A program made the position numbers and the translations under genes. From a virus (Duplodnaviria; Heunggongvirae; Uroviricota; Caudoviricetes), in IMG/VR virus record IMGVR_UViG_3300031087_000527, positions 81,384 to 145,383 of that record: a DNA stretch of 64,000 nucleotides; one strand, 5' to 3'. Positions 59,488 to 62,111 of the stretch are shown here, in pieces. The notes below the pieces were generated by a model. That model was not told where the DNA came from. It was given only the letters and a program-made list of their open reading frames with translations, and searched no databases. Position 1 is the stretch's first letter. Every line of letters starts with the position of its first letter.

Positions 59488-59672
59488 TAAAACATGGCCT
59501 GCTTGCTGTTTTTGGTGGTAAAACAGGCAGGCTTTATAAAATATGTGCAAAAAGCGATCAGTTGATTAAAATAGTGAAAAAAAGAGTTGTACTTGATGAT
59601 CGGATAGCGTATTATTCTCTACATCGAAACGAGAGATAGTTTTTAAAAATCAAAACGTTGAGATAAAAAATA

Positions 59673-59709: not shown

Positions 59710-59786
<77 letters not shown>

Positions 59787-59805
59787 CTTTTACTAAGGAG
59801 TTATT

Positions 59806-59967
59806 ATGTGTGCTGATAGTTGGTCTTTAGAAAAAGGTGAGGTTGCTGATGGTGTATGTCCTGATTGTGAAATGGATACACTTGATGGATATGCTGTGGA
59901 GGGATGTAATTATTCTCCGGTTGTATGTGAAACGTGCGGACATGCTCCGTGTGATGCTTCTTGTTAG
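59806..59967 (+). CDS. Cys-rich mini-protein (53 aa)
   Basis: AAGGAG RBS; CPDC, CETC and additional Cys. Confidence 0.7.
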   Translation: MCADSWSLEKGEVADGVCPDCEMDTLDGYAVEGCNYSPVVCETCGHAPCDASC

Positions 59968-59972
59968 TGAAA

Positions 59973-60048
59973 GGCCCCTTAGCTCAGTGGTTAGAGCAGG
60001 CGACTCATAATCGCTTGGCCGTTGGTTCAAGTCCAACAGGGGCCACCA
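59973..60048 (+). tRNA. tRNA(CAU), Ile2 (ileX-like)
   Basis: GGCCCCT acceptor, GGCGA-CTCATAA-TCGCT arm, nearly the enterobacterial ileX sequence as I recall it. Confidence 0.92.
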
Positions 60049-60130
60049 ACACTTCATATTCTCCTATGTGGGTGTTCTTTACTGCTTGTGTTAAAAAATA
60101 AGTAAAGGAAGCTGGTTAACTTCCTTTTAT

Positions 60131-60216
60131 GCCTCAGTGGTGAAATCGGTAGACACAAGGGATTTAAAATCCCTCGGCTTATGGCTGTACCAGTTCGAGT
60201 CTGGTCTGAGGCACCA
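60131..60216 (+). tRNA. tRNA-Leu(UAA)
   Basis: Type II body, loop TTTAAAA, long variable arm, CCA. Confidence 0.93.
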
Positions 60217-60244
60217 AAAAAGCAATAAAAAGTTGAAAAAAGAG

Positions 60245-60273
60245 TTGTGCATCATGATAGAGTTTGATATGAT
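60245..60273 (+). promoter_or_regulatory. Promoter of distal tRNA/tRNA-like cluster
   Basis: TTGTGC-N17-TATGAT; related to promoters at 59588 and 62960. Confidence 0.75.
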
Positions 60274-60317
60274 GATGTTCTTGATGTGAAGCAGTAAATA
60301 GTTGATTTAAAAGTAAT

Positions 60318-60394
60318 GCGCCGTTAGTTCAGTTGGATAGAACAACCGCCTTCTAAGCGGTAGGTCGCTGGTTCGAGTCCAGCACGGTGCACCA
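60318..60394 (+). tRNA. tRNA-Arg(UCU)
   Basis: GCGCCGT/ACGGTGC, ACCGC-CTTCTAA-GCGGT, CCA. Confidence 0.95.
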
Positions 60395-60399
60395 GAGTT

Positions 60400-60721
60400 T
60401 TCCGGTATTGCTGGTTAAACTTGTCTTATTTAGGTTGTAACTTAAAAAATTCATCCTTCTGATAAAAGTGTACAAAGCTTAACAGTTGTGAAACAGGTAA
60501 GCTTTATTTGGCCCGTTAGCTCAGTTGGTAAGAGCAATCGACTCATAATCGAGAGGTCGCTGGTTCAAGCCCAGCACGGGCCACCAAATCTGTGATATAT
60601 TTACGATGGCTACATCTTGCAAAGATGCGCCAGAAATAAATAGAGGTTTCTTTAATGGGTGGAGCTTTCGGGCGTTGAACCCTGTTAAAAGAGAATCACT
60701 TTCGGACGCCAGTAACCGGAA
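60400..60721 (+). ncRNA. Structured RNA region enclosing the tRNA at 60510
   Basis: Long-range helices 60400-14/60709-21 and 60458-70/60697-706 plus internal hairpins. Confidence 0.45.
60510..60586 (+). tRNA. tRNA(CAU), probably Ile2
   Basis: GGCCCGT/ACGGGCC acceptor, loop CTCATAA, CCA; Met identity not excluded. Confidence 0.9.
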
Positions 60722-60728
60722 TATTTAT

Positions 60729-60951
60729 GTCTCCCTTAGCTCAGTGGTAGAGCCGGGGCTGTAGTTGACAGTGGTTGCGAGATAAAAAGATATTTACGTT
60801 AATCGATGCGTATCAGTTCAAGTCTGATAAGGCTCCAGTAGGAAGCCTTTAGCTCAATGGTAGAGCCTTGGCGGGAAGTTTCCGTGGTCGAGTAAAGAAG
60901 GTGTTATCTCAATAGCAATGCGCGTTGGTTCGAATCCAACAGGGGACACCA
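60729..60951 (+). ncRNA. Two-headed tRNA-like RNA (outer tRNA domain plus inner circularly permuted tRNA domain)
   Basis: Two D-arm/T-arm units whose acceptor and connector helices pair only crosswise; ends in ACCA; no anticodon loop. Confidence 0.8.
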
Positions 60952-60953
60952 AT

Positions 60954-61033
60954 AGGAGAGTGATGGAAGGGGTAGACATCTCTGAAAGGAGTGGCGGCAG
61001 TCATTGAAGGTTCGAATCCTTCCTCTCCAACCA
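60954..61033 (+). ncRNA. tRNA-like RNA with truncated, GAAA-capped anticodon arm
   Basis: GGAGAG/CTCTCC acceptor, D arm, TCT-GAAA-GGA, TGGC-GGCA-GTCA variable arm, GAAGG-TTCGAAT-CCTTC, ACCA. Confidence 0.75.
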
Positions 61034-61040
61034 ATAAAAT

Positions 61041-61175
61041 GGTTTTTTAGCTCAGTTGGTAGAGCGCGAGCGCCAAAAGATCGTTTCTACTTCGGTAGAC
61101 AGCTCCGGCTGGTCAAATGACAACGATTCGATCTTAGGCCAGAGGTCGCTGGTTCGAGTCCAGCAGAAACCGCCA
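61041..61175 (+). ncRNA. tRNA-like RNA with multibranched insert replacing the anticodon arm
   Basis: GGTTTTT/AGAAACC acceptor, canonical D and T arms, GCCA end, about 75-nt folded insert. Confidence 0.8.
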
Positions 61176-61595
61176 GTATTTTTAATCTTTATTTCATTAA
61201 AAAGCAGTATCTTTTCATTAAATCAGCAACGAACGTAACAGTTTTTATTTAGATTTTTATATTGCTGTCAAATACCCATTTTTCATCCATAAAACCATTC
61301 CAGCTATACTTTTCACCTGTATAATTCTCATTTACTTTCACGATATGTTTTTCATATTTTCAGTACATCATTTTAAAGTTCGTTTAAATTGTTAATTTTT
61401 CACAGAAAGCATGTAATGCGTGATTTTTCTATTTTTACTTCTTTCGCCATTATAACTCGTTTAAATTATGTAATAACAAGTTATTCGACCGTTTGTCTTT
61501 CTTTATTGCTTAATTACTATTATTTACTGGTGTTTATTTTATTTTATTTTATTTTATTTTATATATTAATTATTATTTATATTAAAGGGCAAGAA

Positions 61596-62111
61596 ATGAA
61601 AAGAAATAAAAAAGGATTTTCCTTATTAGAGTTACTCTTAACGTTAGGAATCATAGCGGCATTAATAATAGCGGCTTTCATCGTATATCCTAAAGTTCAA
61701 GCGGCTCAAAGAGCGGAATCAGAGTTAAAAAATGTTGCAACTATACAAGCAGGCGTTAAATCTCTTTATAGCGGAATGGCAAATTATCAGGGGCTTAATA
61801 ATAGTGTTCTTATCAATGCTAATGTATTTCCAGAAAACTTACTAAAAGATGGAGATTCTGGAACACAAGCAGTAAATGCATTTGGTGGTAATGTAGAAGT
61901 AAAAAGCACATCTGCTTCTGGAATAGCGGATGCGGGGATTTCTATAAAATATTACAATGTTCCAAGTGATGAGTGTATAAGAATAGCAACAGCATTAGCT
62001 AATAACGTATCCTCTGTGCGAATTAATAACATAGCTACAACGTATACTTCGTTATTGGCGACAAAATGCAGTTCCACTAATAGTAATACTATCGAAATAG
62101 TGTCTTTATAA
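61596..62111 (+). CDS. Type IVb major pilin (PilS-like prepilin)
   Basis: KKG-FSLLE prepilin cleavage/methylation motif, hydrophobic helix, AFGG.V, YYNVP.DEC, C-terminal Cys pair. Confidence 0.88.
   Translation: MKRNKKGFSLLELLLTLGIIAALIIAAFIVYPKVQAAQRAESELKNVATIQAGVKSLYSGMANYQGLNNSVLINANVFPENLLKDGDSGTQAVNAFGGNVEVKSTSASGIADAGISIKYYNVPSDECIRIATALANNVSSVRINNIATTYTSLLATKCSSTNSNTIEIVSL

Follow-up and report, generated by a model that had tools for sequence, protein, structure and literature searches.

The DNA analysed here, called the window throughout, is a 64,000-nucleotide (nt) stretch covering bases 81384-145383 of a 259-kb IMG/VR phage record (IMGVR_UViG_3300031087_000527), with about 38% G+C; most of the runs that contain the stretch are plant-associated metagenomes. 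Within it lies a dense array of RNA genes. The transfer RNA (tRNA) genes tRNA-Arg, Met, Leu(UAA), Arg and Met are recognised by ARAGORN and Rfam at 59710-60586 and are followed by four tRNA-like units that ARAGORN does not call, with gaps of 5-12 nt: 60733-60832, 60845-60948, 60954-61033 and 61041-61172 (Rfam tRNA scores of 18.9, 29.4, 28.2 and 43.6 bits, respectively). The third of these units, an 80-nt gene that we refer to as the element, is the subject of this study: it has the body of a class II tRNA, with a short, closed stub where the anticodon arm would be. A scan with model R1 finds it as a single copy in the 259-kb genome, and no open reading frame (ORF) of at least 50 amino acids (aa) overlaps it on either strand. 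Its score against the Rfam tRNA family RF00005 lies below the gathering score of 29 bits, and it has no entry in the gathering-threshold scan; ARAGORN at default settings likewise leaves it uncalled. Its parts are as follows.

60954..61033, + strand: the whole tRNA-like gene, 80 nt from position 1 to the encoded CCA; 28.2 bits with the Rfam tRNA model, 106 bits on itself with model R1
60954..60960, + strand: 5' strand of the acceptor, AGGAGAG, which pairs with CUCUCCA; standard pairs at 6 of 7 positions, A1 and A72 unpaired
60961..60979, + strand: U8, G9 and a Leu-type D arm, consisting of a stem of 3 bp, G13/A22 and a loop that reads A14 A15 G16 G17 G18 G19 U20 A20a G21; invariant in all copies
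60980..60991, + strand: the stub CUCU-GAAA-GGAG, which replaces the 17-nt anticodon arm; 100% paired in four variants, with two pairs changed on both sides
60992..61005, + strand: variable arm UGGC-GGCA-GUCA, then U47x and U48; the stem changes only from wobble to Watson-Crick pairs and the GGCA loop is invariant
61006..61022, + strand: T arm GAAGG-UUCGAAU-CCUUC, identical to those of E. coli tRNA-Tyr and of tRNA-Ser(GCU) of Shigella phage Ag3; one loop change, A to G, in the variant from run X2
61023..61033, + strand: 3' strand of the acceptor, CUCUCCA, with discriminator A73 and the encoded CCA; ACCA is invariant in all copies

The acceptor reads as an earlier, preliminary description of this locus had it, with six base pairs, A opposite A at 1:72, A73 and CCA. 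The 1:72 pair is A/A in the window copy and U1-A72 in the copies of Ag3 and of IMG/VR contig L017; A1 recurs in a contig from a second sample (run X2, record 3), and this contig shows zero differences from the window copy. The D arm, UGAUGGAAGGGGUAGACAU, matches those of the six tRNA-Leu genes of this phage, UGGUG(A/G)AAUNGGUAGAC(A/G)C, in length and register, so that the Leu-like D loop proposed earlier is borne out. The identity of the T arm to that of enterobacterial tRNA-Tyr, also part of that description, holds letter for letter for E. coli tRNA-Tyr; because Ag3 tRNA-Ser(GCU) has the same arm, it is not diagnostic of identity. The variable arm, with four base pairs, a 4-nt loop and UU, has the layout of T4 tRNA-Leu. 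U8, A14, G18G19, U54 U55 C56, A58 and the NCCA acceptor end are all present and are invariant in the four known variants.

The stub abuts the D stem and consists of a pair equivalent to 26:44, pairs 27:43 to 29:41 and a four-base cap. Its 4 bp, one of them U-G, agree with the earlier account of an anticodon arm reduced to a short stem closed by GAAA. The same account described two arms capped by stable GNRA tetraloops and took these as a sign of design. For the stub, the GNRA cap stands in the window lineage, where the loop is GAAA or GAGA; in Ag3 it is UGAG and in a phyllosphere variant UGCG. The variable loop, GGCA, has C as its third base and is not a GNRA loop, and with the stub loop sequence unconserved the argument from tetraloops to design is not supported as it was put.

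Compared with canonical class II tRNA-Leu genes of its own genome and of T4, the element has the same acceptor, D, variable and T architecture, A73, the same D-loop register, UU before the T stem and an encoded CCA. In contrast, it lacks the 5-bp anticodon stem and 7-nt loop, has G16 G17 in place of the usual pyrimidines, and has a weak or mismatched 1:72 pair.

Conservation of the stubbed form in two phage lineages

BLAST against GenBank phages returns copies of the same length from three members of Agtrevirus (Ackermannviridae), namely Shigella phages Ag3 and MK-13 and Enterobacter phage EspM4VN. They match the element at 86% identity, do not differ from each other, and carry the annotation tRNA-Ser(UGA) or tRNA-Undet. 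Pattern scans of IMG/VR add one more variant, on the 135-kb giant-phage contig L017 with the same operon; this variant is also present on L174, a 369-kb giant-phage contig from a metagenome. Among contigs of public runs, the exact window version, including A1, occurs in a second phyllosphere sample (X2), as does a fourth variant with the stub UCUC-UGCG-GGGA, which was rebuilt from a difference table and is approximate, with position 1 uncovered. Beyond the known copies, stricter scans of IMG/VR, metagenomes and genome collections returned only L017 and L174, and a pattern scan of 185,579 prokaryote genomes found no copy; the scan patterns demand exact D- and T-loop words, so that diverged copies would escape them. 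The D-loop 14-mer has at least 120 chance matches and, among the matches listed, has the T arm downstream only in the known copies. We found no publication or Rfam family that describes the element.

With model R1, true members score 106-109 bits, and the nearest sequences with a full anticodon arm are a separate family at 53-59 bits. The closest homologues, which are 86-96% identical and come from independent isolates and assemblies, all carry the stub and none has a 17-nt arm. The preliminary description had allowed that a recent deletion or an assembly error might explain the missing arm; because no homologue with a 17-nt arm was found, both are excluded, and the element is a real, conserved 80-nt phage gene.

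Folded as a cloverleaf with the stub, three full sequences keep five helices, with 98.6% of cells paired. Four pairs have changed on both sides (acceptor 6:67 and 7:66 and two stub pairs), and the observed pairing and double changes were reached by only 4 of 500 shuffles, so that the fold exceeds what chance would give. The Ag3 and L017 copies differ at 14 of 80 positions, all of them within the 34 positions of the acceptor, stub and variable-arm helices and the stub loop. The remaining 46 positions (D arm, T arm, joints and ACCA) are free of differences, an outcome to which a uniform expectation gives about 6e-6, and every difference in a stem keeps the pairing. With the fourth variant included, there are 18 variable columns; of the 30 positions that are unpaired and lie outside the stub loop, only one, a T-loop base, varies. 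Such a pattern is that of an RNA held to a tRNA-like fold by purifying selection, which would have acted after the stub arose.

The same comparisons bear on whether the element might be a class II tRNA gene in decay, derived from a Leu gene or from the family with NNGUUUR loops described below, that has lost most of its anticodon arm and drifts neutrally, carried within tRNA clusters by recombination or homing-endonuclease traffic. Because more distant relatives that share the D and T arms of the element have 17-nt arms (L004, L005, L006, L013, L018 and L021), the stub arose by loss. Decay would also suit the A1/A72 mismatch of the window copy, the dispensable and patchy nature of the element, and the homing endonuclease genes annotated at the same locus in some Ackermannviridae. 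However, neutral drift does not predict 14 substitutions since the lineages split with none in the core positions and none that breaks a pair, nor a stub remodelled by compensatory changes. The same 80-nt form is found in a 259-kb giant phage and in 158-kb Ackermannviridae, whereas look-alikes that do appear decayed (L007 and L164) have a broken acceptor stem and no CCA. We therefore consider decay improbable.

Several other RNA genes bear comparison with the element. A class II family on IMG/VR contigs has its D and T arms (L004:3698-3784(-), L018:9559-9645, L006:5102-5190(-), L005:1340-1442, L013:1879-1978(-) and L021:3153-3252). Its members also have U1-A72 and G73-CCA, and their arm is complete at 17 nt, with a 7-nt loop of the form NNGUUUR (CUGUUUA, CGGUUUA or UUGUUUG). 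These loops have a pyrimidine at 37, and some lack U33; they may hold a GUU anticodon of Asn type, set on a body shaped like that of tRNA-Ser or tRNA-Leu, or hold no anticodon at all. Two further sequences, L007:4786-4859(-) and L164:2226-2303(-), combine the same D and T arms with an irregular middle in addition to the acceptor defects noted above, and are probably decayed relatives, in contrast to the intact element. Finally, tRNA genes at L014:1012-1091, L147:807-883(-), L160:643-721, L167:2890-2967(-) and on L173 have a Leu-type D arm, A73, a CAG anticodon and a short variable loop of class I size. These genes recall the type I tRNA-Leu reported for Streptomyces (PMC6614811).

Would-be anticodons and the seryl-tRNA annotation

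The Agtrevirus copies have been interpreted as decoding tRNAs. ARAGORN calls tRNA-Ser(tga) in Ag3, EspM4VN and MK-13, and in the paper on the Ag3 genome the gene appears as a second seryl-tRNA, absent from phage ViI (PMC3121705). Since these annotations concern the same gene, of the same length and with 86% identity to the window copy, the reading given in GenBank and in the Ag3 paper, a seryl-tRNA (UGA) that decodes through an unusual anticodon arm, has to be weighed for the element as a whole.

A decoding arm has a 5-bp anticodon stem and a 7-nt loop, with U33, a purine at 37 and a conserved anticodon; the element has no such arm, and a 7-nt anticodon loop is required for translation (PMC9976931). 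The ARAGORN Ser(UGA) model of Ag3 obtains its 5-bp stem by taking the 3' strand of the D stem, and the C-G pairs of its loop, CCUGAGG, would close. When a 7-nt loop is forced on each copy, the anticodon comes out as Phe(GAA) in the window, Leu(GAG) in L017, Ser(UGA) in Ag3 and Ala(UGC) in the X2 variant; at a relaxed threshold, ARAGORN itself reads the window copy as tRNA-Phe(GAA) with a C/A mismatch. The forced helix is 86.7% paired, has no double changes, leaves 27:37 unpaired in two of three sequences and places C at position 33. tRNAscan-SE returns 'Undet' for EspM4VN. The serine label itself fails, as the discriminator of these copies is A73, their D loop is of Leu type and their stub is closed.

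Because the would-be anticodon varies on nearly the same body, and because two unrelated lineages have retained the stub through compensatory changes, we conclude that the element does not decode, in agreement with the non-decoding RNA that had been proposed for the window copy, and we regard a decoding function as highly improbable. The published annotation of the Ag3 gene as a second seryl-tRNA is thereby corrected and should be dropped. More generally, tRNA mimics can enter codon-usage analyses as spurious decoding tRNAs through calls of the ARAGORN type.

Gain and loss of the element and its genomic context

Two further features of the locus concern the way in which the element is inserted and how it might be transcribed.

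60951..61036, + strand: presence/absence cassette of 86 nt, made up of the element and spacers of 2-3 nt; relatives join 60950 directly to 61037
60245..60273, + strand: putative operon promoter TTGTGC-17-TATGAT, read by eye; a consensus scan makes no call here

The junction of 60950 with 61037 is found in one DNA run (X3) and in two RNA-library runs (X5 and X20), each bridging at least 139 nt. A comparable situation is seen in the Ackermannviridae, where about 80 nt are precisely present or absent right after a conserved promoter-like site: the element is in Agtrevirus phages Ag3, MK-13 and EspM4VN and is missing in phage 38 and Ds5CZ. Because it is precisely absent from relatives whose neighbouring sequences are left adjacent, the element is an independent, dispensable module, swapped between unrelated phages of enterobacterial-type hosts. 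No clean target-site duplication or clear transposition signature is seen at the insertion; both junctions lie at ...CCA-A(A/T).

Its position within an operon raises the question of whether the element works in cis, as a processing or stabilising module. It could be a landmark for RNase P or 3' trimming, or a protective end, with the released 80-nt piece itself functionless. RNase P requires an acceptor/T-arm minihelix with CCA, and the element has one; it also lies 2-7 nt from its neighbours in the tRNA operon and, in Ag3, between a promoter and a conserved downstream region. Yet relatives carry or express the same neighbours joined without it, and Ackermannviridae without it retain both the promoter and the downstream region, so that the neighbours do not need it. 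In addition, punctuation would not demand A73, a Leu-type D loop, or a stub and variable arm that are maintained. We consider a purely cis-acting function rather unlikely.

In the slot of the Ag3 element (L001:1500-1579), the Salmonella phage SPTD1 (Kuttervirus) has a different insert of about 80 nt (L143:529-612), whose terminal helix (GCAUCAGAG/CUCUGGUGC) is 9 bp long and which also has a hairpin with a GAGA cap; it may be another small structured RNA. Immediately downstream of the promoter slot, Ag3 has a region (L001:1586-1690) that is 83-96% conserved in phage 38, Ds5CZ and SPTD1. It starts GGGGCGAUAG..., holds a T-arm-like hairpin, GAGG-UGAAAAU-CCUC, and finishes ...CCCCGCCA. Ag3 carries no annotation for it, Rfam gives no match at E values up to 1, and it may be a further tRNA-ended RNA.

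In the window, the putative promoter is followed in order by tRNA-Arg, tRNA-Met, a two-headed RNA, the element and the next tRNA-like RNA, and a motif almost identical to it is also found at 59586-59620. In two metatranscriptome runs of one study, contigs of the operon without the element (window 60600-60950 joined to 61037-61175) have word depths of about 490 and 720. These depths hint that the tRNA-like operon of the relatives is abundant in RNA libraries, although DNA carry-over is also possible. The tRNA-like neighbour at 61041-61172 varies as well: its 78-nt insert at 61066-61143 is replaced in relatives (runs X2, X3 and X20) by 19 letters that form an ordinary anticodon arm with the loop CUUACAA (anticodon UAC) on the same tRNA body. 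Related phages therefore have the neighbour in two forms, one an ordinary tRNA and the other lacking an anticodon.

None of the neighbouring ORFs points to a tRNA-related function; they include a lactonase, a 5'-nucleotidase, a cytidylyltransferase-like protein and a pilin-like protein. The last of these, a 240-aa ORF at 61389-62111 (+) directly after the RNA array, matches the PilS N-terminal domain (7.9e-27) and Bundlin (5.6e-10) and has an N-methylation motif; a type IVb pilin match is unusual for a lytic-looking giant phage. A 53-aa Cys-rich ORF at 59806-59967 was considered as a counterpart of Ag3 orf00220 and rejected, as the two are not alike. Elsewhere in the same phage genome, beyond the window, ARAGORN calls include one tRNA whose anticodon has four bases (agaa; G000:C1:155071-155147) and one amber-reading tRNA with a CUA anticodon (G000:C1:248866-248939). 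A crude scan of the genome for acceptor/T-arm/CCA units, too noisy to serve as a count, showed the element as the sole stubbed unit with a Leu-type D loop.

Leucine identity and candidate roles

The identity determinants of E. coli tRNAs offer a guide to possible enzyme partners. Leucine identity depends on A73, A15-U48, G18G19, A20a and D/T-loop contacts, with the anticodon and the variable arm dispensable; tRNA-Leu variants without an anticodon arm stay active, and activity is lost only when A73 is changed or the D/T-loop contacts are disrupted (PMC9976931). The element has an invariant A73 at 61030, has A15, G18G19 and A20a in the Leu register, and has U48 directly 5' of the T stem, where it would pair with A15. 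Serine identity, in contrast, involves G73, G1-C72, G2-C71, a Ser-type shape and a long variable arm, and tyrosine identity involves A73 and U35, with G34 and G1-C72 as further features (PMC9976931). Of the serine features only G2-C71 is found, alongside A73, A/A or U-A at 1:72, a Leu-type D loop and a variable stem of only 4 bp. Of the features of bacterial tRNA-Tyr, A73 fits and the T arm also matches that of E. coli, whereas there is no anticodon or U35 and no G1-C72. Judged by these determinants, SerRS and TyrRS appear to be poorer candidates than leucyl-tRNA synthetase (LeuRS). The best canonical match of model R1 is T4 tRNA-Leu, at 46.3 bits; because of this match and of the complete set of leucine determinants, host LeuRS would be the likeliest synthetase partner, and charging of the element is plausible. 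The phage record has no Pfam match for class Ia synthetases (tRNA-synt_1, which covers LeuRS), a CCA-adding enzyme, L/F-transferase or Ro60, and any partner of these kinds would therefore have to be a host protein.

Our best explanation, which we put forward tentatively, is that the element is a self-contained phage gene for a trans-acting, non-decoding, probably leucylatable mimic of tRNA-Leu that acts off the decoding site. We infer the following course of events, from transcription and processing through folding and charging to a downstream role. The RNA would be transcribed within the polycistronic tRNA operon and, because it has an acceptor/T-arm minihelix and an encoded CCA, would probably be trimmed like a tRNA by host tRNA-processing enzymes. 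It would then fold into the L-shape of a class II tRNA, with the anticodon limb sealed by the 4-bp stub so that no codon could be paired. The features that an E. coli-type LeuRS would recognise (A73, A15-U48, G18G19, A20a and the D/T-loop contacts) all lie outside the anticodon arm, and the RNA would most likely dock on host LeuRS and be leucylated. Finally, it would act in trans, whether by carrying leucine for a non-ribosomal transfer or by competing for LeuRS and for other proteins that bind the tRNA body.

In an alternative reading, aminoacylation is irrelevant: the element could be an uncharged decoy or sponge, a tRNA body with CCA that binds host or phage proteins recognising the acceptor end or the elbow and is not consumed. 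Candidate partners would be defence toxins that modify or cut the 3' end or acceptor stem, anticodon-loop nucleases that dock on the tRNA body, or modification and processing enzymes. The unchanged parts of the element are the elbow, the T arm and ACCA, as a decoy would have it, and accessory counter-defence genes typically show a patchy, cassette-like spread such as it has in the two lineages. Several more tRNA-like RNAs without an anticodon, which use different tRNA bodies, are found in the operon and genome, and the shape may be a common requirement rather than leucine identity. However, most known anticodon nucleases read the anticodon loop, which is absent here, and a stoichiometric decoy facing a catalytic toxin would have to bind it tightly and non-productively, for which there is no evidence. 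A decoy would also have no need of the exact leucine set (A73, A15-U48, A20a and the D-loop register), and no candidate partner was identified. We view this reading as unlikely, though more likely than the other rivals to a leucylatable mimic.

Several observations weigh against the leucylatable mimic itself. Its fold is not the one favoured by thermodynamics: nearest-neighbour folding prefers an alternative hairpin, in which G16-U20 pair with positions 25-29, over the cloverleaf by 2.6-4.8 kcal/mol, and the cloverleaf was returned neither by minimum free energy folding nor by RNAalifold. We retain the cloverleaf on the grounds of tRNA homology and stub covariation. Every change in the stub, however, is a transition that the alternative hairpin would tolerate too, and with only four variants known, in two lineages, the covariation rests on few events. 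The element is dispensable, as close relatives in both lineages lack it. In the RNA-library runs X5 and X20, operon contigs come only from relatives without the element; contigs of this kind cannot reveal RNA ends. In Ag3, the best sigma-70-like promoter found by scanning, TTGACA-18-AATAAT, ends 1 nt before the element, which puts the predicted start within the 5' acceptor strand; the RNA would then be made at full length only by read-through from upstream. G2-C71 is a serine-type pair and position 72 is A rather than C, which makes both the specificity of charging and use by L/F-transferase uncertain. Lastly, the present data fit a charged and an uncharged role alike.

The closest functional analogue of a leucylatable mimic would be engineered. 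The 'minimalist' tRNA-Leu of E. coli has a Leu body with A73 and D/T-loop contacts and no anticodon stem-loop, and is reported to serve as a substrate for both charging and editing by LeuRS (PMC9976931, summarising Larkin et al. 2002). Unlike that engineered transcript, the element is a gene conserved in natural phages, in which the variable arm is retained and a 4-bp stub closes the limb. The closest natural context is that of T4 RNAC and RNAD (the species 1 and 2 stable RNAs), small non-coding RNAs that lie head to tail with phage tRNA genes and end in or near CCA (PMC9697503). The element resembles them in context only, being within and co-oriented with a phage tRNA cluster and a few nt from its neighbours. 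There is no homology: RNAC and RNAD measure 119-139 nt and do not form a stubbed cloverleaf of Leu type, and the score of model R1 is only 15.7 bits, at the T-arm end of rnaC, with nothing on rnaD. The bacterial Y RNAs such as YrlA (RF02553), which bind Ro60, are also non-decoding, have a tRNA-like D/T elbow and have been reported from phages too (PMC4201824). Identity with a Y RNA was rejected, as the element scores 24.5 bits against a gathering score of 69, the match covers its 3' half and the start of the next gene, and the 259-kb record contains no TROVE/Ro60 protein. The ends of YrlA lie in its Ro-binding stem, whereas the acceptor stem of the element is open and carries CCA.

The furthest-reaching version of our explanation makes the element a natural, mobile, 'ribosome-blind' leucyl carrier. 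Charged by LeuRS, it would deliver leucine to a non-ribosomal acceptor, for example through the host L/F-transferase of the N-degron pathway, or else it would be a LeuRS trap that retunes host translation. In favour of a donor role, the acceptor carries G3-C70, A4-U69 and C68, four of the five positions favoured by E. coli L/F-transferase (PMC4105747), with C72 the exception; we take this as a weak hint, and the carrier or trap as a doubtful proposition at present.

The usual explanations for phage tRNA genes are codon usage and the replacement of tRNAs cut by host defences, and a conserved tRNA shape that does not decode fits neither. The element is small, has a complete leucine identity set and, whereas most such RNAs come from uncultured giant phages, is present in the cultivated Shigella and Enterobacter phages Ag3, MK-13 and EspM4VN, which makes it testable with E. 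coli enzymes and genetics. If the carrier or trap reading is true, the element would provide an entry point to the function of the anticodon-less tRNA look-alikes found in phage genomes.

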